Of a stretch of 53,858 bases of DNA, positions 15,540-49,302 are shown one piece after another; the first letter of the stretch is position 1; each line of letters opens with the position of its first letter. Position numbers and translations under genes: made by a program. The DNA comes from Psammoneis japonica (taxonomy: Eukaryota), in contig QPGO01000274.1 in assembly GCA_008632985.1 (NCBI GenBank), positions 1 to 53,858 on the forward strand, given 5' to 3'. The notes beneath the pieces are model-generated. The model was given only the letters and a program-made list of their open reading frames with translations. It did not search any database and had not been told where the DNA came from.

Positions 15540-16122
15540 CTCTTTGTTCTTCAGATGCAAGGATCCGACACAAAGCGATGGACGTCAGGGTTGATGCGGA
15601 TGACAGCGTGTTGGCAAATGGCGGTTGCTGCCATTGTGGTTGCAGAGGAGCGAGGAGTGGGGGAGGATGGATGTGTGCTGTGCCCCCTCACGCACATGTG
15701 CAAATTCATCTCCGAATGGCAGTTCACAGCGTGGGTGTGCCCCGGGGCCATGCCTGCACGACATGCATGCGCGACTGCAACAGCACAGAAAGCACAGCAA
15801 CTGTGCGTTGCAAGGTGTGTCCCCTCACATGTGCAAATTCATCTCTGCATGGCAGTTTGTGACGTGGCTCAGTGTGCCCCGGGGCCGTGCCCGCACGACA
15901 TGGCATGTGGGCACACGCGACTGCTGCTGCATGCACAAATCCATCTCCAACTTGCACTGCTGCAACAAGCACTGCTGTGACAAGCACTGCTGCAACAAGC
16001 ACATCACATCATTTCACCGCCTTTTTGTTGTTCTGTTGACAAGGAGGGAGTTGCTTCGACCCTCGTTTGGCTTTGCGCCTGCCTGTGTGGCACGTTCCAA
16101 AAGAAGAGCACCATCACGCACC

Positions 16123-17301: not shown

Positions 17302-17326
17302 AGCTCAGACTGCGCAGCAAAGATTG

Positions 17327-17547
17327 TCGTCCTCAATGTCTGCCATTGGGACGACACAAACCTGGCAGAGCTCCGTTCTTGTCTCTGCTCTAGAGTGCCC
17401 TTTCCTTTCAAATTCATCTGGTTGAAAATGCTGCAGTCATCCTCAATGTCTGCCATTGGGATGACACAAACCTGGCAGAGCTCCGTTCTTGTCTCTGCTC
17501 TAGAGTGCCCTTTCCTTTCAAATTTATCTGGTTGAAAATGCTGTAGT
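17327..17547. repeat. Tandem duplication, period 110 bp (also at 24748-24968)
   Basis: cctcaatgtctgccattggga...ggttgaaaatgctg at 17331 and 17441. Confidence 0.95.
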
Positions 17548-17763
17548 TGGCTTGACACTCGCAGCAGGCCCCTCTGCCTCGTCAGCCAGCCAGCGGGTGG
17601 CAGAGAGTGCCATGCTGCACTGTAGAGCTAGCTTAGAGCAGGCAGCAGTCTCTTAAGGGCAGTGGGGAGCACAGTGCTGCACTGTCCCCTGCCATGAATC
17701 TAAAGATGCTCGCGATGGATCCGTTGCAGTGGTGTCCCAATTAAACACATTAAAGCATTTTTT

Positions 17764-19190
17764 CTAATGGGAGTCTTTCGACAGTCTTTCGAGACGGTCA
17801 ATGATGCCTTTTCCAGGAGAAAATTCCTGGCCGACCATCGCTTGAACCTTTTGGACCAGCGCCCTTTCCGCAGCAACAGAGAAAGTCCCACATTTAAAGG
17901 TGAGCTCTTTGTGGCATTCGCAGGAGCAACCCCTGCAGCCGCTGCACATTGCACAGTGACAGTCCTCGCACTTTTTCATGCATCCAACTTCCTTTCTTGC
18001 TGTGAAATGACCTGTGTGATTGATGGAGCTGATTTCACAAATCACAAAATCATCCATCTGTTTGAAGACCTTGTGCAAGCCTTCGGCACAACAGGTTGTG
18101 CCAATGTTAAAATCCTTGCTCAACAACTTGTTGCACCCGTTGCACTGCACGCACACATTCGACAACTCCTTGCTGCAAATCTTGCAAGAGCAATCGTCGC
18201 CGCATGGGTCGATCCTCAGAGTGGCCGAGTCTGGCAGCTCAGCAATGGTCACAGCATCAGGCAGCTCTGGCAGCTCTGCAATCGATGCAGCATTGGCACC
18301 CTTCTTCTTCCTCTTCCTCTTGTTTGTCTTTGCCATCTCCTCAAGTTTGGCACGTTCCTCCGCTAGAGAATCATGCTGCTCCTTTGACCCCTTTGCTGTC
18401 TCCTTGAACTCAACATGTTCTTCCACAATGTGGCTGAGCAAAGGAAGGATTCCCTTCAGAATGGTGTCAGTGGAGGGAAAAGCATTTGCTTCCAATCCGC
18501 GTGACATGCCAGCAGTGGGCGGCAGCCAAGAGCCATCCACAACTGGCTCGCAGGTGCATCTCTGTGCCATCCTGAGAAGGCACAGCTCCGGAATGCCTGG
18601 GATCTTCTTGCCAGCTTTGAGACCAGCTGGATGTTCGTGATCAGCTTCAGCTTCATGTTTCAACTCTGTGTGCAACTCTGCACATTCGAGCATTGTCACC
18701 GTTTCACGGGTGATGCCTTTGATGGACACACCACGGTGCATCCAGTCCCAAGCCACTGAGACACAAACTTCCGTGGCAGTGACATCACCACCCATCTTGT
18801 TCACTGCTTTTTCACGGAGGTTGGCATGGCAGTCCGAATCATGCAGTTTTGATGGCGCCATCTTCCAAAAAGCATGCATCCTGCCCTTGTTGATGTGAAG
18901 GAACTGTCCAGGTTCCAGAGCAAAAACAGACGGACAGCACCTGTTGTGACCGTGCGAAACAAAACAGTGATGGGAAACGAAAGTCGGAGAATGTGCAAGA
19001 TTCAGACGACGCAACTTGCCCCAGTTGCTTCATCTCCTTGATTGTCTGACCAGTTGGCCAATTCAGGTTCTTGCGGTTCTCCTCATGAGGGAGGCCGTGC
19101 ACAGCGTCGCAGTCCTTGTCACTGCCGTTGAGAAGGTCCACAGCCTTTTTTTTTGAATTTTTCCGGCAGTCGTCGCAACATCACGACTTC
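17764..19190 (-). pseudogene. 5'-truncated duplicate of the JmjC gene
   Basis: Matches 25185-26610 but is cut at the duplication junction, so it lacks the HxD motif. Confidence 0.88.
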
Positions 19191-19897
19191 TTAAAAGCTG
19201 GCTTTTCATCCTTTGTCCGTGGCTGTTGTCCTTGTTTGTCTGGCAAATCAAACAAAAACATCATTGAGGGCGGAAAATGACTCCGATGCTTCACCTTTGT
19301 CGACAGGGACGCATTTGCTTGCTGGAGCCCATGACCCTGCCGGTGGCTCTTTTGGGGATGGAAGCTCTTCAGGAAACAAGGAGGGCTGGGGTGATGAGGC
19401 GCCCATGGCAAACAGAAAAGACAGATGCTGCTGACAGTGCCGCTGCTGCTGCTGATTGTGTGCCGACAGCAGAAGACAAAGCAGAAGGCAGAGAGACACC
19501 ACGCGCCAGAAGTTCACACTGCGCGCATGCAGACCCTGCCTGCACAGGCTGTTCAAAAAAGTCACCTCTGTTGTGCTGTCATGGCTTGTCCCAACCAGGT
19601 CAGAAAGGAGCACATTCATGGAAGCCAAACACCAAGAAGCCTTCAAGCCTTCAAGCAGACAGCAGACAGTGCTGCAGACCCTGCTGGCATGAAATGCAGG
19701 ACTGGGCGGCGAGGAGCTAGAGAGAGTGGAGAGCAGGGAGGGTCTCACAATCTCACAAGTTCTGTGTTAATTTGTTTTCACTCAGGAGCTTTTAATCATC
19801 ACAAATGCAGCCTCCAAATTGTGACCATGACACTAAAAACAATTTGCAGAACTGCATTGAAGAATGGGACGACGTCCCCAGAGATGAGCTGGGGACA

Positions 19898-22800
19898 TTA
19901 AGATGCACACTCCTCCAACTTTCTCTTGGTCCCTCTTTCTTGTGCAGGTTCTTTGTTTTGAACCAAATGGGGCTTGTTTGTCAAGAGCCAAAAAACAAAG
20001 CTCGCGTTGCTGTGGCGACCCGCCAACACACGCGGCCACAGCGAATCGGGCCTTTTGTCTTTGCTGAGCCGCAACAAGTGACGTCCAGCCTTGTTCATTC
20101 GGCAAAAGCAATCCATCACCCGTTGAGTCTCCCCAATCGGCATTGTGACGCGTTTCAAAGAGTGTGAGGCTTCTCCAATTTCTTCAGGTGTGATTTCCAG
20201 CTGAGGGTTTCCCCGCAAATTAAGTTTTTCAAGATTGGGCAGCGCCAAAACCTCTCGCGGAATTCCAGTCAATTGTGTGCAATTAGAGAGATCCAATGAT
20301 TTCAATCTTTTGAGCAACCCCATCGCAGGAGGCAACTCAACAAGGCCATTGCAACAGGCCAAGCCCAGTGACTCAAGACCCGCAAGCTGGGAAACGCTCT
20401 CTGGCAACTCAGTGAGGGATCGACACCCTGTCAAACTGAGCCTTTTCAAACTTGAAAGTTGGAAGAGCTCATCTGGCAACTCAGCAAGTTCTGTGCACCC
20501 CTCGACAACCAACTCTTCAAGTTTTGCAAGTCATCCAATCTCTCAAGGCAAGGTGACAAGACGCAGAGAACCATCTTTGGAAGCAACCGTCAACTCTTTT
20601 AGGTTGGTCAACTGTCCAATCTCTGGAGGCAATCGCTCAAGACGATGGCAGTGGATCAGCGTCAATGTCTTGAGGTTTGCAAGTTGTCCAACTTCACCGG
20701 GCATGGCAACAAGACTCTCAGCATTGAAGATGGTCAACTCAATCAAGCTTCTCAATCCTCCAATCTCAGCAGGCAAGGCCACAAGACTCTCACTCCCAGA
20801 AATCCTCAACTTGGTCAAGCTTCTCAACTGTCCAATCTCAGCAGGCAAGGTGATGAGACTGATGCTTTCAACAACCAGCACTTTGAGGTCAGACAGCTGT
20901 CCAATCTCTGGAGGCAACTGCACGAGAATCTCGCAACCCCACAATTTGAGCGTCTCAAGGTTTGCAAGTTGTCCAATCTCAGCAGGCAAGGTGACGAGAC
21001 TCCAGCTTTCAACAACCAGCTCTTTGAGATTAGACAGCTGTCCAATCTCTGGAGGCAACTGCATGAAACCGTGGCAACCCTCCAATTCGATCGTCTCAAG
21101 GTTTGCAAGCTGTCCAATCTCAGCAGGCAAGGTGACGAGACTAAAACTTGCAACAAACAGCACTTTGAGGTTAGACAGCTGTCCAATCTCTGGAGGCAAT
21201 TGCACAAGACTCTTGCAATGCCTCAATTTGAGCATCTCAAGGTTTGCAAGCTGTCCAATCTCAGCAGGCAAGGACAGAAGACGCTCATTTGTGGAAACTT
21301 CTAAGGTTGTCAAGCTTCTCAACTGTCCAGTCTCTGGAGGCAACTGCTCAAGACGCGAACATCTTCGAAGGTGCAGTGCTTTGAGATTGGACAGCTCTCC
21401 GATCTCTTGAGGCAACTGCTCAAGATGCAAACTTTCAACAAACAGCAGACGCGTTCCAGCCCCAGGTGGGACTCCGTGTGACATTGGGCCCGTAGAATTC
21501 TGCGTGCGAGCTCCGTAGTGCGAGAATTTAATTGATGAATGTGTTTGTCTTCAACATCAAATGAACGACCAAGTTTGTGGTGCAATTATGCCTCTCACCA
21601 CTCGACGTTTTTGCAATTGCACCTGCCCTGCGCGATTCTTAAGACAGCATAGAATCGCGCTGTGACAAAAAATGTCAAAAGTTTTTGGACGGATCGCTCA
21701 ATGAGTGCACCGTAAAATGACACAAAATGTCAAAAAATCACGTAGAATTCTACGTGCGCGACATGCGACAAGATTCAAAAAACTGTCGATGTCACAGTTC
21801 AGCAGCACGAGGTCCCACCCAGACCTGGAACGCGTCAGCACTTTGAGATTAGACAGCTGCCCAATCTCTTGAGGCAACTGCATGAAACCGTGACAACCCT
21901 CCAATTTGATGGTCTCAAGGTTTGCAAGTTGTCCAATCTCAGCAGGCAAGGTGACGAGACTCCAACTTTCAACAACCAGCTCTTTGAGGTTAGACAGCTG
22001 TCCAATCTCTGGAGGCAACTTGCCAAGATTGTCGCAACCCTCCAATTTGATCGTCTCAAGGTTTGCAAGTTGCTCAACTTCACCAGGCAAGGCCTGGAGC
22101 CAATGGCCACGGAAAACTTCTAAGGTCGTCAAGCTTCTCAACTGTCCAATCTCTGGAGGCAACTGCTCAAGACGCAAACATGCTCGAAGGTGCAGCACTT
22201 TGAGATTGGACAGCCGTCCAATCTCTGGAGGCAATTGCTGAAGACGGATGCAGTTGAGCAGCGTCAACGTCTCAAGGTTTGCAAGTTGTCCAATCTCAGC
22301 AGGCAAGGTGACGAGACTCCAACTTTCAACAACCAGCTCTTTGAGGTTAGACAGCTGTCCAATCTCTGGAGGCAACTTGCCAAGATTGTCGCAACCCTCC
22401 AATTTGATCGTCTCAAGGTTTGCAAGTTGCCCAACTTCACCAGGCAAGGCCTGGAGCCAATGGCCACGGAAAACTTCTAAGGTCGTCAAGCTTCTCAACT
22501 GTCCAATCTCTGGAGGCAACTGCTCAAGACGCGAACATGCTCGAAGGTGCAGCACTTTGAGATTGGACAGCCGTCCAATCTCTGGAGGCAATTGCTGAAG
22601 ATGGATGCAGTTGAGCAGCGTCAACGTCTCAAGGTTTGCAAGTTGTCCAACCTCAGCAGGCAAGGTGACGAGACTCAAACTTTCAACAACCAGCTCTTTG
22701 AGATTAGACAGCTGTCCAATCTCTGGAGGCAACTGCTCGAGACAGAGCAATTTGAGTGTGACCAGCCAGTGCATCATGACAATTTCAGATGGCAATGTTC

Positions 22801-22960
22801 TCAAACAACCTGGAGGAATTGCCGTGCAGGAGGCGTTGACGAATCCTTCGCATCCTGGCTCAATTGTGACATGCTGGGAAGACGCCAACTGCTCCACAGA
22901 CTGTCCTGTGGCTCGAGCCAATGCAGCAAGGATTTGTGCAGACTGCTGTTTAGCGTCCAT
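19898..22960 (-). pseudogene. LRR-A, copy 2 (MITE insertion, in-frame TGA stops near 20531-20545)
   Basis: ORFs 21698..22981, 20543..21484 and 19898..20512 form one LRR frame once the MITE is removed and two TGAs are read through. Confidence 0.92.
21448..21836 (+). mobile_element. MITE family A, copy 3 (duplicate of copy 2)
   Basis: Same TIRs and AGCA TSD at the homologous site, so the insertion predates the 7.4-kb duplication. Confidence 0.95.
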
Positions 22961-23543
22961 CTCTTTGTTCTTCAGATGCAAGGATCCGACACAAAGCGAT
23001 GGACGTCAGGGTTGATGCGGATGACAGCGTGTTGGCAAATGGCGGTTGCTGCCATTGTGGTTGCAGAGGAGCGAGGAGTGGGGGAGGATGGATGTGTGCT
23101 GTGCCCCCTCACGCACATGTGCAAATTCATCTCCGAATGGCAGTTCACAGCGTGGGTGTGCCCCGGGGCCATGCCTGCACGACATGCATGCGCGACTGCA
23201 ACAGCACAGAAAGCACAGCAACTGTGCGTTGCGAGGTGTGTCCCCTCACATGTGCAAATTCATCTCTGCATGGCAGTTTGTGACGTGGCTCAGTGTGCCC
23301 CGGGGCCGTGCCCACACGACATGGCATGTGGGCACACGCGACTGCTGCTGCATGCGCAAATCCATCTCCAACTTGCACTGCTGCAACAAGCACTGCTGTG
23401 ACAAGCACTGCTGCAACAAGCACATCACATCATTTCACCGCCTTTTTGTTGTTCTGTTGACAAGGAGGGAGTTGCTTCGACCCTCATTTGGCTTTGCGCC
23501 TGCCTGTGTGGCACGTTCCAAAAGAAGAGCACCATCACGCACC

Positions 23544-24722
23544 ATGGAGGATGGCAAAGCGCTGCATGGCCTCAGCACATTGGCTCGAGCAGTGGGACTG
23601 TCTGAGGAGGCTTTGATGGAGCGCAAACAAATTTTCCCAATCTTGAGTGAAGATCGTTGGGCGAGAATGAGAGAATCACCACCTGAAACAGGCTTGCTGC
23701 ACCGACTGACTACACTGGACTTGTCATCCTGCCGGCATCTTGAGCGATTGCCGCCACAGATTGGACGGTTGACCGGCCTCAAAGTGTTGCGCCTTGTTTG
23801 TTGCACGAGTCTTGTTGATTTACCTGATGAGATTGGACAGTTGCGGAGCTTGGCGGAGTTGCATTTGTGTGGGTGCACAGAGCTAAAACGACTGCCGCAT
23901 GGAGTTTTGCACCTTACAAACCTGGGGGAGCTGGAGATCAAACACTGCACAGAAGTCACTGAGTTGCCAGATGAACTCTTCCGACTGCCAAATTTGAAAT
24001 GCTTGCAGTTGGAACATTGTGATTCCCTCACTGCGTTGCCAGCGAGAGTTTCCCAGCTGACAAGTCTCGAGTCGTTGCACGTGTCACTTTGTGGCAAAAT
24101 GTCAGAAATTCCTGTTGAGATTGGCCACCTCTCCAACTTGCAAACGCTTGAGCTGCGCGGATGCAGAGGCTTGAATGATTTCCTTCAAAATGGCACAAGC
24201 GGCATGGTGAACCTGACTGGACTGGATTTGAGTGACAATGCTGACATCATTGAGTTGCCTGTTGCAATCGGGTCACTTGAATCTTTGAAAGAGTTGTGTT
24301 TGATGGGTTGCACGCGATTGACTCGCACTCCAAAAGAGGTTCTGGGGCTTCCAAATCTCACAGATCTTAATTTGTGGGCATGTCGTGAGCTGAAGACAAC
24401 ACCGGAAGAAATTGGAGAGGCTTCGCATTCTTTGAAGCACATGGAAATGCCGACCGAGGAGACTCAAGCAAAGATGGATTGCTTTTGTCAAATGAACAAG
24501 GCTGGACGTCACTTGTTGTGTTGCAAAAGAGGCGCACCCGCTGCCATTTGGCCAAATGTGTTGGCGGGTCCTTCCAGTGATGAAAACTTTGTTTTTTGGT
24601 TCTTGACGCACAAACCTCACTTTGTCCAGAAGCACCAGGGAAAAAGAGGAACCAAGAGAGCTGTCGAGGAGCAGGACAGCACAGTGCGGCAGGACGTTCG
24701 TCAACAGATTGCTCAGCCATGA
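23544..24722 (+). CDS. LRR-B, copy 2; open frame of 392 aa with no Tyr, function doubtful
   Basis: Uninterrupted from MEDGKAL to QIAQP*. LRR repeats and MNKAGRHLL C-terminal domain. Confidence 0.75.
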   Translation: MEDGKALHGLSTLARAVGLSEEALMERKQIFPILSEDRWARMRESPPETGLLHRLTTLDLSSCRHLERLPPQIGRLTGLKVLRLVCCTSLVDLPDEIGQLRSLAELHLCGCTELKRLPHGVLHLTNLGELEIKHCTEVTELPDELFRLPNLKCLQLEHCDSLTALPARVSQLTSLESLHVSLCGKMSEIPVEIGHLSNLQTLELRGCRGLNDFLQNGTSGMVNLTGLDLSDNADIIELPVAIGSLESLKELCLMGCTRLTRTPKEVLGLPNLTDLNLWACRELKTTPEEIGEASHSLKHMEMPTEETQAKMDCFCQMNKAGRHLLCCKRGAPAAIWPNVLAGPSSDENFVFWFLTHKPHFVQKHQGKRGTKRAVEEQDSTVRQDVRQQIAQP

Positions 24723-25184
24723 AGCTCAGACTGCGCAGCAAAGATTGTCGTCCTCAATGTCTGCCATTGGGACGACACAAACCTGGCAGAGCTCCGTTCT
24801 TGTCTCTGCTCTAGAGTGCCCTTTCCTTTCAAATTCATCTGGTTGAAAATGCTGCAGTCATCCTCAATGTCTGCCATTAGGATGACACAAACCTGGCAGA
24901 GCTCCGTTCTTGTCTCTGCTCTAGAGTGCCCTTTCCTTTCAAATTTATCTGGTTGAAAATGCTGCAGTTGGCTTGACACTCGCAGCAGGCCCCTCTGCCT
25001 CGTCAGCCAGCCAGCGGGTGGCAGAGAGTGCCATGCTGCACTGTAGAGCTAGCTTAGAGCAGGCAGCAGTCTCTTAAGGGCAGTGGGGAGCACAGTGCTG
25101 CACTGTCCCCTGCCATGAATCTAAAGATGCTCGCGATGGATCCGTTGCAGTGGTGTCCCAATTAAACACATTAAAGCATTTTTT

Positions 25185-28100
25185 CTAATGGGAGTCTTTC
25201 GACAGTCTTTCGAGACGGTCAATGATGCCTTTTCCAGGAGAAAATTCCTGGCCGACCATCGCTTGAACCTTTTGGACCAGCGCCCTTTCCGCAGCAACAG
25301 AGAAAGTCCCACATTTAAAGGTGAGCTCTTTGTGGCATTCGCAGGAGCAACCCCTGCAGCCGCTGCACATTGCACAGTGACAGTCCTCGCACTTTTTCAT
25401 GCATCCAACTTCCTTTCTTGCTGTGAAATGACCTGTGTGATTGATGGAGCTGATTTCACAAATCACAAAATCATCCATCTGTTTGAAGACCTTGTGCAAG
25501 CCTTCGGCACAACAGGTTGTGCAAATGTTAAAATCCTTGCTCAACAACTTGTTGCACCCGTTGCACTGCACGCACACATTCGACAACTCCTTGCTGCAAA
25601 TCTTGCAAGAGTGGTCGTCACCGCATGGGTCGATCCTCAGAGTGGCCGAGTCTGGCAGCTCAGCAATGGTCACAGCATCAGGCAGCTCTGGCAGCTCTGC
25701 AATCGATGCAGCATTGGCACCCTTCTTCTTCCTCTTCCTCTTGTTTGTCTTTGCCATCTCCTCAAGTTTGGCACATTCCTCCGCTAGAGAATCATGCTGC
25801 TCCTTTGACCCCTTTGCTGTCTCCTTGAACTCAACATGTTCTTCCACAATGTGGCTGAGCAAAGGAAGGATTCCCTTCAGAATGGTGTCAGTGGAGGGAA
25901 AAGCATTTGCTTCCAATCTGTGTGACATGCCAGCAGTGGGCGGTCGCCAAGAGCCATCCACAACTGGCTCGCAGGTGCATCTCTGTGCCGTCCTGAGAAG
26001 GCACAGCTCCGGAACACCTGGGATCTTCTCGCCAGCTTTGAGACTGGCTGGATGTTCGTGATCAGCTTCAGCTTCGCGTTTCAACTCTGTGTGCAACTCT
26101 GCACATTCGAGCATTGTCACCGTTTCACGGGTGATGCCTTTGATGGACACACCACGGTGCATCCAGTCCCAAGCCACTGAGACACAAACTTCCGTGGCAG
26201 TGACATCACCACCCATCTTGTTCACTGCTTTTTCACGGAGGTTGGCATGGCAGTCCGAATCATGCAGTTTTGATGGCGCCATCTTCCAAAAAGCATGCAT
26301 CCTGCCCTTGTTGATGTGAAGGAACTGTCCAGGTTCCAGAGCAAAAACAGACGGACAGCACCTGTTGTGACCGTGCGAAACAAAACAGTGATGGGAAACG
26401 AAAGTCGGAGAATGTGCAAGATTCAGACGACGCAACTTGCCCCAGTTGCTTCAACTCCTTGATTGTCTGACTAGTTGGCCAATTCAGGTTCTTGCGGTTC
26501 TCCTCATGAGGGAGGCCGTGCACAGCGTCGTAGTCCTTGTCACTGCCGTTGAGAAGGTCCACAGCCTTTTTTTTGAATTTTTCCGGCAGTCGTCGCAACA
26601 TCACGACTTCATTGTAACCTGCGATGCAAAGGTGTCCCGAGTCTACGGTGCCATGGCCGTCTTGGTGAAACCCAGTGAAAGATGGTGGTGTGGTGACGCA
26701 CAAATTGGGGCCCATGAAAGGACGCGCTTCAGGATTGATCTGCACACTCGTTGAAAGCAAGGAGGAAACCGGTGCATGAGATGCAAGCACTTTGTCTAGC
26801 GGGATGCAATTTGTGGCACTGCAACACTTGCCGCGATCATCAGGCAGTGCTTTCCTCCCGGAAAGAATTCCATGAGCTTCAAAGAGGATGTCAAGTCCTC
26901 GCACAACTCCAGCAGCACCTTCTTGACATTGACATCATGCATGTGCAAGACCGTCTTCATTGGATCAATTTTTTGCTTCTTGTTTGTTGCGTCAACAAAC
27001 TCGAACTCATTGCTCCCAGATGTGCCATTCATCCCACCGAGACGCTCATTGAGACAACGGATGCAATCTGCAATCGTCATGGAAACAAGCTCAGGATGTT
27101 CCTCACATTCCACCGAATCCTTTTTTGCTGTGTGTGTTTTAATCTCAAAGTGGCAATGATCCGACGTTTGATGCGCCACACATTGGGGATGCCACACTCA
27201 TGGCCTCAGGTGACCAGCAAAACCTTGGGTTACAACTGAAATGTCGTCACGTTCCATCATGTGCAAGAGAAACCTCTCGTCCTCCCCGCGAATCACAGGA
27301 TCATCCATCTTGTCCATGCGGAAGTTGCCAAGGAGAACCCGGGAGTCTTCATCCCAAGTCCAAATGCAAAGACCCGTGTTGGGTAAATTTGGGACATCTG
27401 GAGGATCAGGCATCCGGCTGCCTGGCAACTCATCATCCTTTGGCAGCTCGAGCTCTTCTGGGCTTGCTTTTTTCCGTTTCGCACCTCCTTTTTTGTTGTT
27501 GGAGTTTCGGTTCATGAGGCCGTGCGTGCATCCACGGTTGTTGATGGCGTTCTTCATGTGACTTTTAAATGCCCTCTCCCCGATGCACAGTATGAAACAG
27601 AAAGCATCCTGACAAATTTTGACTTTGGTTCCTGGCAGCACAAAATCATGCGTGGGACCCAAAACGGAAAAGAGAGGCATTCCGGCTTGGGGAGGCATTG
27701 GCAGTGCGGGTTGTGCGGCTTGCTTTGTCAACTTGACCATCTCGTCATGCTTGTCTTTTCCTGTCTTCGGAATGCATCCAACAAGGAAGCCGGCACAAGC
27801 TTTTGCATTTTCCATTCCCTCAGAAGGATCAAATGCTTTTTTGAGGCAGCAGCATGACGAACTGGATTCTTTGTCATTCCTCCCTTCGGCCCACCTCTTG
27901 CATGCATCAAAACCGGCATCCTTTGTCAGAAACTGGCACAAACTGTCGGCGGCAGCATCGATGGCTTGCGGAGTTGCGCTTTTCTTCTTCTTCAAAGTTT
28001 CCTTCAATTTCTCAAAAACCAAGCTGCGCTTCTTCACCTCGTTCAACTTCTTCACCTCTCTCGGCTCGCCAACATCACTGGCAGCGTTGGCGACCTCCGC

Positions 28101-28528: not shown

Positions 28529-28830
28529 GCCGGCAGTGGGTGTCACACATGCATCACATCTGGTTGCATGGGGGGCTGGACTGCCGGCAGTGGGGCACAT
28601 GATGCATCATGAGCACATCACATCTAACTGCATGGGGGGCTGGACTGGGGCCTGCCGGCAGTGGGGCACATGATGTGTCACACACGCATTGTGTCTGATT
28701 GCATGGGGGGCTGGACTGGGGCCCACCGGCAGTGGGGCACATGATGTGTCACACGTTCATCATGTCTAATTGCGTGGGGGGCCAGACTGGGGCCTGCCGG
28801 CAGCGGGGCACATGATGTGTCACACATGCA
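28527..28830. repeat. Degenerate ~70-bp minisatellite
   Basis: Recurring gcatggggggctggactgggg..ccggcagtggggcacatgatgtgtcacac. Confidence 0.8.
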
Positions 28831-28922
28831 TCACAGGTGTGTCGAGGATCTCATGGGCCATCATGACAGATCAATCACCTCAGGCTGCTCACAATCGCCA
28901 ATGCATTTGTTTTGCTTGCGCA

Positions 28923-29270: not shown

Positions 29271-30840
29271 CTTTCTTGTCCTGTCAAGAAGTTGTTGTGC
29301 AGCAGACTTGATGCACCAGACTTCCCAAGCACAGCAATGACGTCATGCGACAGTCAAAAGTGTATGAAAAAAAGTTGAAAATGTGGGTCATCACGTCATT
29401 GACGTCCGGAGGCCGAGATTCAAGACGATCTGGATTCCCGATTCCTGTTCCCACAGAGCATTTCGGCACAGTTTCTACATGCAGGTAAGACTGTGCACCC
29501 ATCGCACAAATTACCACCTGTTGACCTGTTGATCGACGTGGCACCAATCATTCATTTTTCTGCATGCATTGACATGTGAACAACACCAGAACAAGAGCCT
29601 CCACCGGCACATGTGCCATTCAAGTAGAAGGGTGCATGCCACAAGGAAGGGGAGAATCCACCAATGGAGGGACAACACCTGTTGTTTGCTGCTGGCACAC
29701 ATTGACCCATTCATGGTGGCGGCGCGATGGATGCAGCACACCATTGCTTTTCCCTTGCAGCTCGATTGTCTCATGCAGATGACCAGAACAACGGTTTAAT
29801 CAACGTTCATTGCCTTTTTCAACTCCAATGACTGCGACCGATTTGCCAGAACTTAAATGGAAAACTGTTTTCCATTTAAGTTTTGGGCAAATCGGTCATC
29901 GAATGACCTCATCACGCGGTCTTTTGTCCGCACAAACCATGACTGTAGTTCGCTGCTTACATTGAACAACTTTCACTGCTTCAATTGTGGATGCAGTCCT
30001 GACTCGCATGCACACCAGACGACATTCCATCCAATGGCTCGCTCGCTCATCAGCCATTTAGCTCAGCAGCCTCTTCTGTCTCCTGGTTCCAGCACATCCA
30101 AGCACTTGCTTGTTGCTCTTCACAAACAAGAAAAAAAGCCAACACCTTGCTGCTGGCAGTTTCCCAAACCACCACCAACAATGGCAGCAAAACAGTCCTT
30201 CACCAACAAGGATTTGTTGTCTTTGTGGGAGCAAGGCGAGGATTGCATCAAACTTTTGAAGAAATCGGCCGGCCAAATCGAACCCATGCTGGAGATTCTG
30301 AGAGATGATTCTCCCTTGGGAAAGGCAAGAAGAGCTGTGCTGATTGGAGCAGAGTGGACAACCGAAACTCCACATGTGACGTTTGAAGACTTCTGGACAT
30401 GCCGGTTTTTATTTGAAGAGGGGTGGACTGTGCCTGAATGTGCCAAAGGAGACACTGCCATGGTGACACCCAACATTCAGCATGTGCCATGTGAGGATGC
30501 AGAAACTCGAGCCACAAGTGCCATGAAGGTTCTGCTTAAAATCCATGGGGAAAGCACTGGAGGAAGAGGGGAATCCAACGCATTGGCTCTGGCGGGAATC
30601 CGAAAAAGAAAGCAGTCTGACAGAGGGCCAAACAAGAAAGGGAATGTGCCCTGGGCCTGCACTTTTGACGAATTCCACCAGCGTTTCAAAATTGCCATGA
30701 CAGCAAGGGACACAAGACGCGCTTCGGCACGTCGGGGAAGATCCAGTGGCCAAGGGCTCTCCATAAAAGATTGTCAAGCCTGGGCTGAGGTTGCCAAAAA
30801 AGGAGGTGCTGTGGGAGGCAAGGTTGACACCAGCAAGAGC

Positions 30841-31105
30841 ACCAAGAGGGCCAAACAGAAGGACCATGGCAAAGGTGGCAGGACTTCTTCGCCAGGGGGA
30901 GCTTCAGCCTCAAAAGTGATTGCCGCCCAATCAAATGGAGTGGCGGCGGACAACGAGATCACCAAGCAATCTCAGGACGCCAGCAACATCGCCAAGAGGA
31001 CGGAACAGGAGGACCATGGCAAAGGTGGCAGGACTTCTTTGCCAGGGGGAGCTTCAGCCTCAAAATTGATTGCCGCCCAATCAAATGGAGTGGCGGCGGA
31101 CAACG
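30841..31105 (+). repeat. 150-bp coding tandem repeat (DHGKGGRTS.PGGASASK.IAAQSNGVAADN x2)
   Basis: Direct repeat visible in both DNA and protein. Confidence 0.9.
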
Positions 31106-32413
31106 TGACCACCATCCAATCCAATGAAGAAGCAGCAGCAGACAAGGAACCTTGTTCGCCAGCAGTGATGTCAAGTCGGTGGACAAGGAACAAACTGGTG
31201 CCAGTGATGATGACAAATCCGTTGCTGCAAGTGGGTGTGCTTGCCCAAGCCATGATTGCATCATGAAGGTTTTGAACACAGATGGCTTTGAGAGTCACAT
31301 GAAGGAAGTGCTTGACGGAAGAACAATTGACAAATGCTGTCTTCAGGAAGGAACTGCCAGCCAGAAAGCGTGTGTTCTGGATGTTCTGGAACGGCATCGT
31401 AGGACAATGAGTGCTGCTGGCAAAGAAGACGCTGCTTGTGAAGAAGCGGGATCTGCCAGCTCCAAATTCAGTTTTGAACGGGCAATGCATTCAAAAAGCA
31501 ACCAAGACGGAGATGCCGCCCGGCAGCTTGTGGATGCCATGGTCTTGTGAGCAAGGAAGTGGAAATCCATTTGACCCACATGCTTGGCGGCACTTGCCGA
31601 TGGAAAGGTGCGAAGGCTGCAGCTCCTCCAGGCGGTCTGTCTCCTGACCAAGGAAGACTGCGGGGACGACGAAGTTTGCCTGTTCTTTGGCGATCCCACA
31701 GAACCAAGATGGGCCGTCAGGGGCGTTCATGATCAAAATCCTGTCTGCAATTTCTTGTTCTTAATGAATGATTTCCTGAAATCTCAAATTTGTGACTTCA
31801 TTGATTCCCGATGTGGTCCATCTCATCATCTGGTCAAGAGACATGAAGACAACGCAATTTTGGTTAGCATCGGAGACACCTGCGACTGGCATTACGATGG
31901 GCAGGTTGCCTTGCATGACAAAGAAAGTCCAGACATGCCATCTTCCTCAAGTGACATCATTGTCAACACTTGGTCACTGGGAACAAATCCTGACACCCCG
32001 TTTGATGCAGTCAATGGCATCAATGGATCCTTGGAGGTGGGAGAGCGAATGGATGAATCAGGTCACAAGCGCAGCAACAAACTGAACATGTGGGGTTTGT
32101 TGGCATCTGTGCAGGGTGTTGGCAGCCAACAACGGCAACATGGCCACCGGGGCAAGGTTTCTGGATCCTTCCTCAACAAAGGTTGGGTGAGGGGTGCTCT
32201 AAGTGGACGGGCATTGCTGGTGGGCAAGGCCAAATGCACAGGCATCTTCAAAGCTGTGCTGGGAGACATTGTGTCCAAGAACATTCTCAAAGTGATGAAG
32301 GATGCCGACAACCAGTTTTCCTTGCGTGAGTTCGACTTCTCAGCAAGTTCAGCACAAGGTCTTCTTAACGGGGAGTCGTGGGGAGCTTGGCCATGTTGGT
32401 GTGGAGAAATCCA

Positions 32414-32804
32414 TCCACGCATTCCAGGTCTAGGTGGGACCTCGTACACTGAACTGTGACATCGACAGTTTTTTGAATCGCCTCGTATGTCGCGCACGTA
32501 CATTTCTACGTGATTTTGGCGAAATTTTGCATGATTTTACAGTGCAATTGTCAGGCTGTCCATTGAACAACTTTTGATGTTTTTTTCTTCTACGCCATTC
32601 TCGAGTGTCTTAAGAATGGCGTGGGGGCAGGCGTGTCATCCAAAACTGCGAGTGCCAACATGGACAGATGCACTGCAAACTTGGCCGTTTTTTTTGTGTC
32701 GAAGACAAACACATCCATCAACCAGAGCACGAACTGCAGAGCTCGCACGTAGAATTCTACGGGGCAAATGTCACAAAAAGTCCCACCCAGGACTGGAACC
32801 CGTC
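32414..32804 (-). mobile_element. MITE family A, copy 4 (reverse orientation, more diverged)
   Basis: Reverse complement of family A; TSD TCCA (32410-32413, 32805-32808). Excision gives in-frame GAA ATC CAG TTG. Confidence 0.88.
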
Positions 32805-35479
32805 TCCAGTTGAGCAGAGGCGGAGGCCGTCCACACCAAAACTTTCAGCTGCCAAAGATCAAGGAGGCTCGTCCAGTTTCAATTCAAAGACTTGCAAGGT
32901 CAATTGGCCCACCTGGAGAAGCTTGGTCCCACCTCACTGCGGCTGAATCTGTCAAATGGGCATTTGGACAAGGGTTGGCAGGGTTCCGTGTTCATTTTTC
33001 AGACAAAAGAAAGCTCCCCATGTTTGTTGGAGTCCCACACATTCAGGGGACATTGTTGCAAGAGGGTGAATCTCACCCTTTGGACCAGGTCCTTCCATTG
33101 CACAACATGAAGAACAAGAAGCAGCGAAAAAACACATGGAACTCCCCAATGTCAGCCATCTTCCAGCCCCAACCACACAAGAGTCCTCCTTCTAAAAGTT
33201 GCAGTGAAGATGCCACACATGGGTCTGGCGGCTCAGGCACAAGAGCTGGTTCAGACAAAATCAGCAGCCGGGATTCGGTCGATGCCTTCACACCCACATC
33301 GCAAGTCCTCAATTTACAAAACCAAGAAATGCTGGCAGCCAACGCATGAAAGGCTGCCATTTGCTTGTACAAACCTGAACCAGATCATGAGTCCTGTGTG
33401 AAATTTCTTGGTGTCTTTGTTTGTGGTGGAGTCAACCATGCGGAGCTGACTGAAGAGGAAAAAACAGATCTCAGGAACGTTTGTGAGGACACCAAATACA
33501 TCGTCTGTACAAGTTTTGCGGATGAAGTTGTTTTTAAGCTTAGCCTCAAGCGCATTCCCATTCCGCAAGGACTCCGGGCTGAGCACATGCATGTTGATGG
33601 GAGGGTTCCAGCACAGTCAGTTCTGAGCCGCACAGTTCCCAAAACAGAATTTGAAGAGGCGCGGTCACCTGGCAGCCAGCACCATGTCACAGGGCCATCC
33701 ATTGTGCAACAAACATTGGAAGAAACAAACTGGGCGGAGCACACTGCAGCATGGGATGGGCCTGTCCCAAGACTTTGGGGCATGCACACAAAAGATGATG
33801 ATGGGTTGTCTGATGCGGACAATGTGTCAGATGTGGCAAAGAAACCAAATGAAGTGGCAAAAGTGACAATCAATGACACCGTCCAGCATGTGCCACTTGC
33901 CGCAGTTGCAGCCAAGGCAAGGATGGCTGGCCACGGAACAAATGAGAGTGATGGGGCGCCCAGAGTTTTGGGACCTGAATTTGCAACATTGGGAGCTGCG
34001 CTGCGTGTTTGCCCCACAGGACACCCTGTGCGAATGAAGAATGTCACTCCAAACCGGTTTAAAAGGGCAAACATGGCTGAACGCGAGGGCGCCAGTTTGA
34101 AAACTCTCCGAGAAGAGCATGATGTGGTGTGGGCAAAGAAAAACCCAGAGAAAGTCGCAGACTTGCTGCGTTCTGCTGTCGCAAATCAATTGATTGCCAA
34201 CCCAAAGACTTGGGAAGATTTTGCTGTTAAGATTGGCAAAGAAGATCATCCATGCAAAGCGGAGCCCCTTGATGAAAGCTTTTGGGCGATGATGAAGCTC
34301 AGTCCCGACCAGATGGAAAAGATGTGTGACTTTCTCAGGACCGAGCTGGGTGAGCGGAACCTGAAGGTGTCATCATTTTTCTCGGGTCAGTGCAAAACAG
34401 ACACAACCGATCTCAATCAAGTTCAAAGGATTTTGAAGGAACTCCATGGCAAGCTGGTCGTTCTTGTTAAAAAAGTGTTGTTTCAAACTGAAGAGGACAA
34501 AATGCGGGCTGAAGTTCAATCGGGTTTAGCTCAATCACTCAGGAGCATCACTGGCACTGGAAATGCAGATTCCAAGACAGACAAAATGTTGTTCCTAGCG
34601 GCTGGTGCACTCCAAGACTTTGAGATTGTTTGCAAGCATGTGTTTGGGACCCCAAACAAACGGAGCCAGGTTTGTGGAACAGGCAGTCGGCAGGCAATGG
34701 ATTGGGTGTCCTTGTCTCTGCCAAAAACCCCAAATGGAGACAAACCGTCCTACTCTGAGATGCTGTTGCTGATGTTGGAGGGGCTTGAGACAGAGGCATG
34801 GCGTTCCCAGATTCTCCGAAATGCCATGGATTTGATTGTTGTGGACGGCAAGCTGGTTGACAGGGAGACAGGGGAGCCATTGAGTGCGACAGACGCCGAG
34901 CAAATTTGTTGTGATGTTTGCTGCAGGCTCATGTCATGGACTTTTTCCAGCCGCAACAGTCAATTTCCAAAAGGGTGGAACAGGTGTTCTCATCCCGTTT
35001 TGTCTTTAACCGAATGTCTCCCTGCATCCGAAACTGACAGGCAGTTGGCAGTGAAAAAGGTGCAGGAGTTTCTTGACATGGATGACAGGAAGCCACCAAG
35101 TGACCCCTTCCTGATTCAAACTGAAGTGGACCACTCAGATGCGTTCGACTCAGACGATGACGTCAAACGCAATGCAAGAAATGAAAGGGAGAGGCAAAAT
35201 GAAACCCTGTCTGAAGAAGAGTCTGAGCCAGAATCTGAGCCAGAATCTGAACCAGAGGCTGTGCCCAATGGCAAAAAAAGAACATCGAGAATGAAGCAAA
35301 CAACCAAGAGACCACAAAAAAGCTGCAAGAGAACATCCTAAAGAGGCAACACACAGTTTCCGCCAAGAGACAACGGCGGCAAGAAGCTGCAGCCGCACCA
35401 CATGAAGAGCTTAGACAGAGCGCAAGATTGAGCAATGCCACCCACAGAACTCATTCCCATGACTCTGATGATTCCTCCT

Positions 35480-36180
35480 GCGACAGTCATGTTTTGAAAA
35501 AAATGCAGATTGCACCAGTTTGAGCATGACACTGCAGCAATGCGGCAGGAGCTGATGCAGCCCAGTCTGAATGCTGTTGTGTGCATCATGCATGGCATCA
35601 CAAGACACCATGCACTTGCAATGTGTCCCCAAAACTTTGCATCATGCATGTGCAGCGGGAGGAGCTGATGCGATGTGTCATGCACAGCATGTCATGCATC
35701 TGTCATGTCACATTTGCACGCGCCAGGAGCTGATGCTGACTGCACCTTCTCTCCACAGAACTTCTTCCTGGCAGAGAGGGTGTTGAAGGTGGCATCATCA
35801 CCAAAAAATAAAACCACATGTGGCAATGCGGCGGGAACTGACACCAGCTGGTTGGCATCGTGTGGTTTGCATCACATGACATCATGTCATGTGATGTCCC
35901 AAAAACTTTGCTTGTGCCACTTGAGGAGCTGATGTGTCATGCACAGCATGTTGCATGTCTGTCATGTCACATTTGCAAGCGCAAGGAGCTGATGCGGCAG
36001 GAGCTGATGCCAGCATGTTGGCATGGTGTTGTTTGCATCAGATGACATCATGCATCCATCATGTCACAGAAAATTTGCATCAAGCACATGCCACGTGAGG
36101 AGTTGATGTGTCATGCATGTGTCAAAGGCCTGTCACATCATGCATGCATGCACAAGCAGGAGCTGATGCTGCAACTGCAC
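35480..36180. repeat. Degenerate TG/CA-rich repeat region
   Basis: Many ggagctgatg units; the block tgtgtcatgcacagcatgt...ctgtcatgtcacatttgca occurs at about 35674 and 35933. Confidence 0.75.
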
Positions 36181-44171: not shown

Positions 44172-44527
44172 CATGGGGCGTGATGTGGGGCGTGCATCAT
44201 GACATGGTGTGACAGAGCAACAACATGGGCGCCACCACTTTTCACTGAACACAACCAGCCATCATGAGCAGCACACCGGCCACTCCTTCTGCAGCCAATG
44301 GCTCAAGCCTGCCGCCGCCGGCTTCTGGAGCCTCAATTTCCCTCTCCAGCCAGTCGCCAACTTCTGGAGCCAATGTTTCCAGCCCCAGCAAGTCACCGCC
44401 TGCACCGTCTCCTTCTGCAGCCAATGGCTCACGCTGACCGCTGCGGTCTGATGGAAACCCTGTCACAAAATCGCTCTGGGATCACCATGCAAGATTCAAG
44501 GATTGGAGCAAGGCTGCCACCCAAAAA

Positions 44528-47491
44528 TTGAGGGAGATCCAGAAAACGAGTCACTGTGACCCCAACAGCATCTACATGGAGCTGCAAGATTGCACAGGCA
44601 TGCACATGAGCGTGTGGCGCACGCACTGCGAAAAAAGTTGTGGCGACAAGATTCTGGGGATTTGTCTGTTGCTTTGGCTGGACTTGTGTGACAAGAGCAC
44701 AGAGACAGCAACTTCGCTCAGTTGGTGGACACAAAAGGATTCGGTGTTCATGTTCACACACCAAGACACAGCTGCTGAGAAGCAGAGCATTCGTCTGCAC
44801 ATTTTTCGAGTGGAACCTTCAGAAGCACATCGGTTGCAACAAGATTCAGAGGAACTGACATTGCAAGAAGATGCCCAAGAAGATTCCGAAGCACAGCCAT
44901 CCTCAATGTCCGAAGCACAGTCACCCCCCATGTTTTTGCCCATGGTCTTGGGTTCAACCCATGAATCAAAGGATCCGCATTGGGCACCATTGCAGCCTTC
45001 CAAGTCAAACATGACTGCCAAATCAGAAGCAAGGTTGGTCAAAAACCACCTGCTTTTGCTGGCCAATGAGTGCAAGCTAGAAAGTTTCCTGGAGCATGTC
45101 CAAAACAATTGGGCAGAGGGAGAATCTGCTGGTCAGTTGGTGGAAAAAATTGGCAAAAGCTTTAGAGAAGGCAAGCTCCACATGTGGCTTGAGGCCCTGT
45201 GCGCAACGCAGCCAATGCAGGTGTTGCAAAATGTGATCGCACTGAGTTCAACAAGAGTTGACCCCAGAGAGGTGATGGAAGACCCAAAAATGACTCATTT
45301 CATGAAGTGTTGCTTGTTGCTCCGGAGGGTGACAACTGTTGCAGTTTCACCACATGGCACCTGCTGCTTGCTCCCTCATTTGGTGTTCAGGCTCTTGAAG
45401 CTGCAACAGCCAACTGTTGGTCAAGAACGGCCAGGTGTGTGCGAGCTCGACAAAGGAACCGGACCAAGGGACAGAGCCAAGTTGTTCCCATTGCAGAAGA
45501 AATTGCTGAGAAAAGTCGACATTCACATGGAGTCACTGGGTGTGGCATTGGGAGCAGATGCACCTCTGCCTCCTTTGATCACAAGGATGGCAGACAGTGC
45601 AAAGAAATTGCCCGCACTGAGGTGAGAGCTGGTCTTGTGTCATGTTGGTTTGTGTTTGGGATGTGTCTGAGCCCTCGGCCGCTCATTGCCGCTGTCTCTT
45701 TTTGTCCCAGTCTTGCTGAGGCAATGTCGAAGTTGCTCAACGAGCAACGCCATGTCATCACTGCACTCAAGGACCAAATTGTGGAATGTTCAAAGCTCTC
45801 CTCTCAATGGAAAGAAAAACAATCAAAGGAAGAAACACAATCAGGAGATGACGCAGATGCAGACTCATCAAAAGGAGAAGAAACCCCATCACAAAATGTG
45901 ACCAAACGAAACGTCAAGGAAGGAAGCACGAAGGTGCTTGAAGCTTTCATCACTCAACGGAGGGCAATTTTCGAAATCGCATGTTTCAGTGTGTTTCCCA
46001 CTTGGTGCAACCACCCCGGGGCGAAGAGCTGTGTGGCGCAGTTTGGTGAGATGATCGCTGCCACCTGTGAGGTGGTTGACAAAGCAATGGAGGAATGCGT
46101 GGAAAACAAAGTTGGTGTTGACACCACAGTGAAAGGTGCTGACAAACGTGTCTTGTCTGTCCTTGTTCAAACAGAAGTGACACTGGGTCTGCTGTGGTTT
46201 GTGTTTGAACACTGCTTCAGCATCAAACCTCAAAGCGATGTGGTCAAGGCAGCTCTGTCACCTGCACTCTCCTCCGTCTACGCAGGATCTCTTTGCCAAA
46301 AGTCTTCAAAAGAAGCACGACACAGAAATCAGGAAGAAGGTGTTGAAGCATTTTGTTGGGTGCTGTGAGAAACTAGAGGGGAAGGAAAATGAGGATTGGG
46401 TGTGGTTGTTTGGTGGAGACTTCAGCTCCAAAAACTTTGTGGGGAACCAATTGAATGACTTCTTGGGGTTGTTGAAAGACGTGGACAAAACGAAAGTGGA
46501 CACAGAACGGCTGAGCAAGACCAAACCCGAGACCAACGTTTGGTCCAGAAAGGTGTGCGATTTGCTGGGAAAGCCGGGGCAGCAAGAGAGCACAAGGCAG
46601 CCAAAAGCACCGAAGAAAAAGAACAAGAACAAGAAGGGCAAAAAGAAAACAGAAACGGAAAAGGAAGACAAAAGAAGGAAATCGCAACCACAAGAAACAG
46701 ATTCCAATGAAAACGATGATGTCACAGATGAGGGCTCCGACGCTTTGGGCGACGATGACCCCAAGAACAGACCCAAGAGTGATGAGGACTCTGACGCTTT
46801 GGGCGACGATGACCCCAAGAACAGACCCAAGAGTGATGAGGACTCCGACGCTTTGGGTGACGATGACCCCAAGAACAGACCCAAGAGTGTGCCGTCAAAA
46901 AGACGACATGTCAGTGAATCAGGCACCAAGTTGTCGACCACAGAGGCTTTTGGTCTCATGACGTGCCCAGAGTGTCTCAAGGCATGCCACAGCAGCAAGG
47001 ACAGGAAAAATGTCAAAGCTGAAGCCGCGCATTGCTGCCAAAGGATGGTGGTGGATCGGGGCATTGTCAGCAGATGTGTGAGCCATGTGGGGGGAACAGA
47101 AGCGGGACTGGATCTGTTTGAATCATTGAAAGACTTCATCAACAAGCTGACAGACCTGCCACACATGGACATTTGGTTGTTGTGTTTGATGGAAGGCAGG
47201 GAAGAGGCCTGGAATGCTTGCGGAAACACATCTGCTGACAAAAAGTCACACCTTGCTGATGTGGAGCCATGGAACTTGTTTCAAGACGAGACCCTTGATG
47301 CGCTCTATCCCAGAAAAACGGAGAAGGCCTGGGGAAAGCACGATCCTCGGTCCATGTTTGGCAAAGACTGCTTGCGTGATTCAGTGGACGACTCTCAAAT
47401 GAACACAAGTCAACTGTGTGTTGGTGGAGTGTCCCCGGTGACACTTTGCCAGAAAAAGGCTTTGTTGCAGATTCCTGTTGGAGCTTTGTGA
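44528..47491 (+). pseudogene. Large uncharacterised helical protein gene
   Basis: ORFs 44528..45625, 45307..46368 and 46199..47491. Intron-like GTGAGA...CCCAG at about 45622-45709; frameshift near 46320. Confidence 0.5.
46727..46888 (+). repeat. 54-bp x3 coding repeat (DEDSDALGDDDPKNRPKS)
   Basis: Three direct copies visible in DNA and protein. Confidence 0.95.
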
Positions 47492-49096: not shown

Positions 49097-49302
49097 GGTC
49101 AATGACATCGAAAAGACGTGGCACGCAACCATGGCACCACACACACATTGCATCACCTGCCTGCCTTTTGTTGCAGTCCAGCCTTTGGGAGCAACAAATT
49201 GTTGTTGTTGCCTCATGGGGCCATTGAGCCGTTCTTGTTGTTGCTCAGCACACTCTGCTTCGCCATGTCTGCATCGTCATCATCCTCGAGGCACAACCAG
49301 GA

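Follow-up and report, generated by a model that had tools for sequence, protein, structure and literature searches.

Positions 30181..35341 of contig QPGO01000274.1 from Psammoneis japonica (assembly GCA_008632985.1), a 53,858-nucleotide stretch that we refer to throughout as the window, carry on the plus strand a dead copy of a very long gene. On balance, we consider it to be a pseudogenised member of a rare and unannotated family of proteins of 1,600–1,750 residues, which would be single-chain enzymes that modify the pyrimidines of DNA, most likely thymine. The predicted architecture of the family, whose parts are supported with differing strength, comprises a variable N-terminus, an AlkB-like domain, an SRA/YDG-like domain and a helical module of the two-bundle, DNA-glycosylase-like fold that resembles the amino acid:DNA transferases (AADTs, formerly aGPT-Pplase) of phages. 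An initial annotation of this DNA had read the gene as an AlkB-like dioxygenase fused to a helical domain of the thymine-hypermodification type; our results support that interpretation, from which the SRA-like domain was missing. The gene remnant and its candidate functional parts are located as follows.

30181..35341, plus strand: whole gene remnant, from ATG to TGA stop; about 1590 codons minus an inserted MITE (miniature inverted-repeat transposable element), colinear with the relatives P0001–P0003.
31629..32416, plus strand: domain 1, a putative Fe(II)/2-oxoglutarate dioxygenase; blastx match to P0001 560–793, E 3e-32.
31890..31898, plus strand: HxD motif (His-Tyr-Asp), candidate iron ligands; His and Asp present in 7/7 relatives covering the column.
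32145..32147, plus strand: a further invariant His, which may be the third iron ligand; present in 9/9 relatives.
32190..32210, plus strand: RGALSGR, an R-x3-S-x-R motif 17 residues past the His; R, S and R each in 9/9 relatives.
33023..33430, plus strand: SRA/YDG-like region; the part supported by hhalign is 33146–33430, and an N-terminal half may start at 33023.
33860..35161, plus strand: C-terminal all-alpha module of ~430 residues, AADT (aGPT-Pplase)/HhH-GPD-like; AlphaFold2 (AF2) model with a predicted local distance difference score (pLDDT) of 82.4 and a predicted template modelling score (pTM) of 0.87.
34670..34699, plus strand: VCGTGSRQAM, a G-x-G hairpin motif; both Gly in 19/19 relatives.
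34892..34927, plus strand: DAEQICCDVCCR; its Glu (34898–34900) and Cys (34910–34912) align with Glu243 and Cys247 of gp46/PUGT.

An exhaustive HMMER search of 1.84 billion representative proteins, with the read-through of 32753–35338 as query, identified 14 related proteins, all of them metagenomic; those that bear a name are called 'hypothetical protein'. Three are full-length (1730, 1583 and 1755 residues, with E values of 1.4e-81, 2.5e-53 and 1.1e-37), and the best match extends over ~850 residues at 32% identity (E 1e-81). When the window is compared by blastx with the 1730-residue P0001, segment 31629–32318 matches residues 560–793 and segment 32726–35329 matches residues 800–1707, and the order of these segments is identical on P0002 and P0003, colinear across the MITE. 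From this colinearity, and from a further, weak match upstream at 31245–31349, we conclude that the gene of ~1600 codons is real and that its two halves belong to one protein in the relatives. Of 158 columns that never vary among the three full-length relatives, 106 are retained in the window copy. The initial annotation had proposed one long gene at this place, and its pieces are indeed colinear with single proteins of 1583–1755 residues (E 1e-81 to 1e-37). It had also proposed a fusion, which separate genes in the homologues would have contradicted; both regions are found in one protein in 3/3 full-length relatives and in the P0025/P0005 lineage. Its description of the frame as reconstructable holds to the extent that the long gene is real, but removal of the MITE, as we read its ends, leaves the flanks one base off, and four 1-nucleotide insertions and one stop read-through are needed.

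Other searches with members of the family returned little. Word-based homologue searches found nothing for the 663-residue piece of the window, and residues 500–860 of P0001 found only themselves; the ESM Atlas gave no usable match for the 663-residue piece. A phmmer search of PDB sequences with two pieces and the family HMM gave chance matches only, as did a tblastn search of 50,697 phage records with the C-terminal module (two matches, E=5). No member was found in JGI metagenome contigs scanned with family alignment A3 and P0001.

The openness of the reading frames has a compositional side. On the plus strand of the window there are 122 TAA and 98 TAG against 1163 TGA triplets, a deficit of about tenfold, and long open reading frames (ORFs) occur on both strands; both features arise because the window is poor in TpA. 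It could be argued from this that there is no gene at all and that the long frames are a by-product of stop-codon depletion in TpA-purged DNA. This reading can practically be dismissed, being refuted by the relatives described above. The ORFs are, in addition, far longer than in 30 dinucleotide-preserving shuffles of the first 52 kb of the window: 13 of at least 400 residues are present where the shuffles give 0.03, 57 of at least 200 residues where they give 8.2 ± 3.2, and the longest reaches 663 residues compared with 420 over all 30 shuffles.

For the C-terminal module, a confident, all-helical AF2 model of 33860–35161 was built with 21 relatives as the alignment. Comparison of this model with 48,161 PDB chains by VIA-align placed 8z2m first (Z 9.4, root-mean-square deviation 4.4, 243/287 residues), which is the 5-phosphomethyl-dU glycinyltransferase gp46 (PUGT) of phage PaMx11. 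It is followed by QNG1/DUF2419 proteins (Z 8.2 and 7.2) and HhH-GPD glycosylases (Z 4.3–6.2), with ranks 1–10 all of the HhH-GPD type or related to it; in a second-look list this group occupies ranks 1–15, after which Z falls from 5.5 to 3.0. Alignment of the family with gp46 alone by hhalign gives one local match, which sets Glu347 and Cys351 of the module (E347 and C351) on E243 and C247. Against 10 phage AADTs the match covers 77 columns (module residues 256–353 to gp46 residues 153–249) with a score of 27.0 and an E value of 0.023. Column permutations score 14.7 ± 2.0, the highest of them 19.0, and 0/33 reach the real value. E347 and C351 are each present in 20/20 relatives that cover the site.

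The residues brought into register are those on which the phage enzymes depend. In PUGT, Cys247 is the proposed nucleophile at C6 and Glu243 a metal ligand (PMC11472151), and M6 gp51 and ViI gp247 lose their activity when their Cys or their Glu is mutated (PMC8989533). Among known proteins the AADTs (gp46/PUGT, structures 8Z2M/8Z2N; M6 gp51) are the closest structural neighbour of the module, with a colinear 77-column alignment in which Glu-x3-Cys is retained. The module differs from them in its size, ~430 residues compared with 291, and in its setting, since it ends a protein of 1,600 residues in eukaryote-type DNA whereas the AADTs are small phage proteins. The assignment of this region to a thymine-hypermodification type by the initial annotation, for which a lack of any profile or structural similarity would have been fatal, agrees with the rank of gp46/PUGT and with the registered Glu/Cys dyad. 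The motifs that it quoted (HxD, HGHRG, RGALSGR, FLAAGALQDFE, VCGTGSRQAM and DAEQICCDVCCR) are all where it had placed them, FLAAGALQDFE at 34592–34624. Its general aGPT-Pplase pattern agrees with real AADT sequences in the ExxxC part but not in the rest.

The same list of structural neighbours bears on a different function, in which the protein would be a repair or de-modification enzyme: an AlkB-like dealkylase, an SRA-like reader and a glycosylase- or QNG1-like hydrolase would together clear DNA, such as that of an invader, of alkylated or hypermodified bases. The matches to QNG1/DUF2419 and to the HhH-GPD glycosylases are in keeping with this, as are the G-x-G hairpin in all 19 relatives, the resemblance of domain 1 (below) to the AlkB superfamily and not to TET/JBP, and the lack of a kinase to make an AADT substrate. 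We nevertheless regard it as unlikely. A transferase, not a glycosylase, tops the structural matches, and it is the Glu-x3-Cys of the transferases that the family keeps invariant. HhH-GPD enzymes have a catalytic Asp ~20 residues past the hairpin; on visual inspection a conserved Asp is not seen past the G-x-G hairpin here, in a region that is variable in the relatives.

Domain 1 carries its HxD motif within WHYD (31887–31898) and HGHRG at 32139–32153, and a Gly at position −6 of HxD is invariant in 7/7 relatives. It shares with E. coli AlkB (H131/D133/H187/R204/R210; RYNLTFR) the spacing of 17 from His to Arg and of 6 from Arg to Arg. It differs from AlkB (PF13532) in the distance from HxD to the second His, which is 85 residues in P0001 and 54 in AlkB, and in having no Pfam match. 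A broad profile of 2OG-FeII_Oxy_2, built from 21 sequences, aligns by hhalign with the HxD strand and the strand after it over 43 columns (E 0.0078, score 24.0), a score that 0/111 permutations reach (null 12.4 ± 2.2); in a greedy, low-confidence extension of this alignment the second His and the R...R pair stay in register. The nearest ESM Atlas cluster (score 0.82) has 2OG-FeII_Oxy_3 in 25% of its members, which we treat as a lead only. TET/JBP (PF12851) has no Pfam match in the window pieces or the relatives, and no TET/JBP profile was built. The AlkB-like part of the initial annotation thus stands as far as the broad profile carries it, but it has neither a Pfam match nor a confident AF2 model, and two narrower profiles are null. 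Judged from these motifs and alignments, domain 1 is probably an AlkB-superfamily-like Fe/2-oxoglutarate (2OG) dioxygenase, and we stop short of calling it an AlkB.

Between domain 1 and the C-terminal module, the window reads HGSGGSG, Q..N..N.E.L, ICLYKP and FLGVFV. The corresponding pattern in the family alignment, GSGGS ... Q..TN..N.AL ... LYRP ... Y.GL, resembled that of SRA/YDG domains and was then tested by profile against bacterial SAD_SRA sequences, which the Pfam model had picked out of 802 sampled genomes. An 8-sequence profile aligns with the family over 80 columns (hhalign score 30.7, E 3.8e-4), where permutations give 10.6 ± 1.9, the highest of them 15.9, and 0/126 reach 30.7. A 2-sequence profile scores 15.7, which 14/107 permutations reach, and is not significant. 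The aligned columns cover the YTGxGG, DQ..N.AL, VRV and Y.GLY motifs of the eight bacterial SAD/SRA proteins. The family differs from these in that its motifs are degenerate (GSGGS, LYRP, y.GL) and the alignment is limited to the C-terminal half. Elsewhere, SRA/YDG domains are readers that flip modified pyrimidines from the helix; those of UHRF1 and SUVH read 5-methylcytosine.

The results gathered in this paragraph and the next weigh against the family being one of DNA-modifying enzymes. At E ≤ 1, a Pfam scan of the window pieces returned nothing except one low-complexity match, and Pfam has no match in the conserved regions of 14 relatives at E ≤ 0.1 or of 9 members at E ≤ 10. The SAD_SRA model (PF02182) matches neither the window pieces nor the relatives. 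The ADDT model (PF18724), to which gp46 belongs with an own score of 1.6e-27, likewise matches none of the window pieces (E ≤ 1), the 14 relatives (E ≤ 0.1) or the 9 members (E ≤ 10). PHROG and PDB-sequence searches with up to 14 family members matched no module. The hhalign probabilities are low, at 36% for SAD_SRA, 5% for AlkB and 2% for AADT. The column-permutation null used in the AADT, AlkB and SRA tests breaks local column order and is hence lenient.

Foldseek comparison of the C-terminal module with the PDB gave nothing at E ≤ 1e-3, its highest-probability rows being 8z2n and AGOG glycosylases. In VIA-align, which was run independently of Foldseek, helical models below Z ~13 may match through a common arrangement; such values are easily reached by helical models, so that a Z of 9.4 is by itself no proof of a fold relationship. 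The Thr that follows the catalytic Glu (T244) is not kept, being V, F, Q and Q in the 4 sequences compared, and the other AADT invariants (D22, D24, P25, Y27, E92 R93 R94 R97 and K150; ERRxxR, DxDPxY) lie outside the 77 aligned columns. A Walker A kinase motif is lacking in 5/6 relatives and the single one found is unconserved, which leaves the phosphorylation step of the phage pathway without a visible enzyme. The AF2 model of domain 1 has a pLDDT of 36 and no confident fold, and VIA-align with that model gives single-helix matches at Z ≤ 3.7. A narrow, enterobacterial AlkB alignment matches the family with a probability of 0.08, and the trimmed domain scores 13.4 against a null of 14.1 ± 3.0 that reaches it in 39/69 permutations; a 22-species AlkB profile scores 14.2 against 14.4 ± 2.9 (28/58), with the register lost; and a 2OG-FeII_Oxy_3 profile scores 16.0 against 13.3 ± 2.5 (17/117), which is not significant. 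As one of four profiles tried gave a score, support for the AlkB superfamily is modest. The N-x-Y ahead of HxD, whose N120 and Y122 are invariant in the AlkB alignment, is not kept in the family, where 'clVN.Y' of the profile pairs with 'ailVsi' and a gap.

If these points are given full weight, the family could consist of nuclear or viral proteins that are confined to one lineage and have an unrelated function, their likeness to AlkB, SRA and AADT being of fold level or due to chance and their invariant residues serving, for instance, metal-dependent DNA binding. That no curated model recognises any part of it, that hhalign probabilities span 2–36%, that of the several profiles tested on domain 1 only one scored, and that helical folds readily give middling Z values would all be explained in this way. 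We think this improbable, however, given that three modules lead, independently of one another, to base-flipping DNA-modification families, that each beats every permutation of its null (0/33, 0/126 and 0/111), and that in two of the modules the aligned residues are known catalytic ones.

We therefore return to pyrimidine modification as the preferred function, in which the three modules, by analogy with the phage systems, would act jointly on DNA. The SRA-like domain would find or flip the target base, and the dioxygenase domain would hydroxylate the 5-methyl group, converting T to 5-hydroxymethyluracil. In the C-terminal module the Cys would attack C6, the activated 5-substituent would be expelled and a nucleophile would add, as in phage thymidine hypermodification. 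The kinase gap could mean a different leaving group, a kinase encoded elsewhere, or a module with another role. The phage thymidine-hypermodification clusters (a 5-methylpyrimidine dioxygenase or dUMP hydroxymethylase with the kinase 5-HMUDK and AADT) resemble the family in pairing an Fe/2OG dioxygenase with an AADT-type enzyme, and in viral contigs Fe/2OG dioxygenase genes adjoin AADT genes, with multi-domain fusions in contigs of viral metagenomes (Lee et al. 2021; PMC8989533). They differ in having a TET/JBP-type dioxygenase and a kinase, whereas an AlkB-like domain, an inserted SRA-like domain and no kinase are seen here. A further difference is that 0/3 relatives of the present family are found in IMG/VR; a scan of that database with alignment A3, P0001, P0002 and P0025 found none. 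Systems resembling aGPT-Pplase are said to have been predicted in some eukaryotes by Iyer et al. in 2013. A literature search retrieved no publication that joins AADT/aGPT-Pplase with SRA, AlkB or algae.

The copy in the window is dead, having been broken by indels, a MITE, a nonsense codon and TpA-to-CpA/TpG hypermutation. We compared 29800–35400 of the window with the contigs of a public DNA run, X1. The principal lesions are the following.

31153..31630, plus strand: four single-base gaps relative to the X1 contigs: one after 31153, one after 31518 and two among 31574/31580/31630.
33347..33349, plus strand: in-frame TGA within the SRA-like region; Arg in P0001 and P0002 at that column.
32417..32804, no strand assigned: MITE insertion of 388 bp with ~24-bp terminal inverted repeats, within the linker that joins domain 1 to the SRA-like region.

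With the X1 insertions restored, the frame stays open through 746 codons, starting at 30181 and reaching the MITE edge at 32416, and the frame shifts in the window are accordingly either assembly indels or allele-specific deletions. The in-frame TGAs at 31548–31550 and 31572–31574 fall within the frame-shifted part. The TGA at 33347..33349 probably arose from CGA, to judge from the Arg in the relatives. At 32964, 23 bp of the window are missing from X1. Relatives contain 2.6–2.8% Tyr, compared with 0.4% in the window protein. At the 17 columns where at least two of the three relatives have Tyr, the window has His 6, Phe 4, Cys 3, Tyr 2, Ile 1 and Trp 1, a pattern of replacement that is as expected for TAY changed to CAY or TGY. 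The initial annotation had already called the copy dead, and the gaps, the MITE, the TGA and the eroded Tyr codons confirm it.

The MITE, which the initial annotation had recognised within the gene, belongs to a family of ~390-bp elements whose terminal inverted repeats start ACGCGTTCCAGG and whose 3-bp target duplications are probable; the copy in the gene is probably flanked by a TCC duplication. Three further copies, at 76–77% identity, lie in the window at 6147–6531, 14020–14414 and 21441–21835, all on the minus strand. The summed contig depth of the element in X1 is ~92,000 compared with ~60 in its flanks, indicating very many copies. None of the X1 contigs joins across the MITE, and no empty site was seen among them. 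Simple excision as a way to restore the frame was considered and rejected, in that removal of 391 nucleotides (the element and its apparent 3-bp duplication) leaves the flanks one base off on our reading of the ends of the element.

Two side observations concern the relatives. The 90% cluster of P0005/P0025, from metagenomes, has 35 members, many of them short fragments of 72–668 residues, with several contigs of ~5.4 kb; fragments on contigs of near-equal length suggest that relatives may also exist elsewhere as repeated, decaying copies. P0001 carries at residues 66–138 an N-terminal ubiquitin-like domain (E 3.3e-5, slightly below the Pfam cut-off), which is found neither in the other relatives nor in the window copy.

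The whole window is depleted in TpA. Its observed/expected ratio for TA is 0.09, and 0.00–0.16 in every 2-kb bin, with CA at 1.55, TG at 1.53 and CG at 0.59. Between the X1 contigs and 29800–35400 of the window there are ~166 differences in 5.6 kb. The first 40 differences listed resolve into 32 events, comprising 7 adjacent CA<->TG doubles, 4 TA-versus-CA/TG singles, 10 of CpG type, 10 others and 1 CC>TT double. The CA<->TG doubles are best understood as ancestral TpA sites resolved independently, which implies that erosion went on after the window and X1 sequences split. A strand-specific sequencing artefact was rejected as the source of the depletion, on the grounds that CA and TG are mixed locally and that the mutation process is known from published experiments.

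That process was described in mutation-accumulation lines of Bigelowiella natans, in which integrated DNA of nucleocytoplasmic large DNA viruses (NCLDV) and virophages is hypermutated almost exclusively at TpA, to TpG/CpA; 124 clusters depleted in TpA are also reported, and an adenine deaminase resembling ADAT2 is proposed (Mettrop et al. 2026, bioRxiv 10.64898/2026.01.13.699255). The same TpA-to-TpG/CpA signature surrounds and erodes the gene in the window. The depletion is far deeper here, at an observed/expected ratio of 0.09 compared with 0.45 in the NCLDV region of B. natans, and the present gene family is not mentioned in the abstract or Results of the preprint (bioRxiv 10.64898/2026.01.13.699255). 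Any link between the family and the TpA erosion is speculative, as the initial annotation had also said. In its strongest form, to which we attach very little probability, intact family members would be thymine-directed DNA modifiers belonging to a protist or to its viruses, and what they produce at TpA sites would be read or processed as C; this enzyme class, and not an adenine deaminase, would then write the TpA-to-CpA/TpG hypermutation, and the window copy would be its casualty or a retired source.

The remaining features of the gene are these.

30181..31153, plus strand: N-terminal Lys/Ser-rich region, poorly conserved, in window frame 1.
30826..31121, plus strand: tandem duplication that keeps the frame, with two 150-bp copies that are 90% alike.
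31245..31349, plus strand: conserved 'PS...G...IDE..L.D' motif upstream of domain 1, with a weak colinear blastp match.
35132..35341, plus strand: conserved acidic DAFDSDD motif, Glu/Ser/Pro repeat, Lys/Arg-rich tail and stop.

The gene starts with the ATG at 30181, and the terminal stop codon of its last open frame is at 35339–35341. Its open pieces on the plus strand are 29857–31263 in frame 1, 31128–31550 and 31575–32456 in frame 0, and 32753–33346 and 33350–35338 in frame 2. The N-terminal region (30181..31153) has no match to the relatives at E ≤ 1, one motif being alike by eye only. The 'PS...G...IDE..L.D' motif is aligned by blastp with residues 441–475 of P0001 and 378–414 of P0003 (E 0.65–0.75), and its residues are invariant in alignment A3. 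No terminal repeats were seen flanking the gene.

Upstream of the gene, at 28540–28860, lies an array of 71-bp tandem repeats rich in CATG and TGCA, and directly downstream, at 35540–36120, are dispersed repeats with a spacing of 166–286 bp, also CATG- and TGCA-rich. Farther upstream, ~12400–27200 consists of two tandem copies of a ~7.4-kb block with leucine-rich-repeat (LRR) ORFs on both strands and one MITE in each; 14280–15584 and 21701–23005 are examples of these ORFs, matching LRR_14 at E 1e-43. An ORF on the minus strand at 40153–40782 matches the C-terminal half of the PhyH (phytanoyl-CoA dioxygenase) model (E 3.9e-8) and is another 2OG-oxygenase fragment within the TpA-purged region. 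On the plus strand, 44438–47491 and 49228–50787 contain ORFs of 395, 368, 436 and 519 residues, partly overlapping in different frames and with no Pfam match, which may be other decayed large genes. An assembly gap of 651 N lies near the end of the window, in ~52000–53858.

AADT-type thymidine hypermodification has been characterised in bacteriophages, and the present family hints at complex DNA base chemistry outside them. The family is unannotated in all of the libraries searched, and apparently unites an AlkB-like oxygenase, an SRA-like reader and an AADT-like module in one chain of 1,600 residues. It is rare, with 14 representatives among 1.84 billion proteins, and one copy lies in eukaryote-type DNA beside LRR genes, MITEs and CpG decay. 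The TpA purging, at an observed/expected ratio of 0.09, ties this region to the TpA hypermutation newly described in a chlorarachniophyte, and the gene family can be tested for or against an involvement in it. Should the proposed function be correct, complex pyrimidine modification would be carried out in a protist or its large viruses by a self-contained enzyme, one that would naturally suggest itself for use in DNA-labelling or sequencing chemistry.

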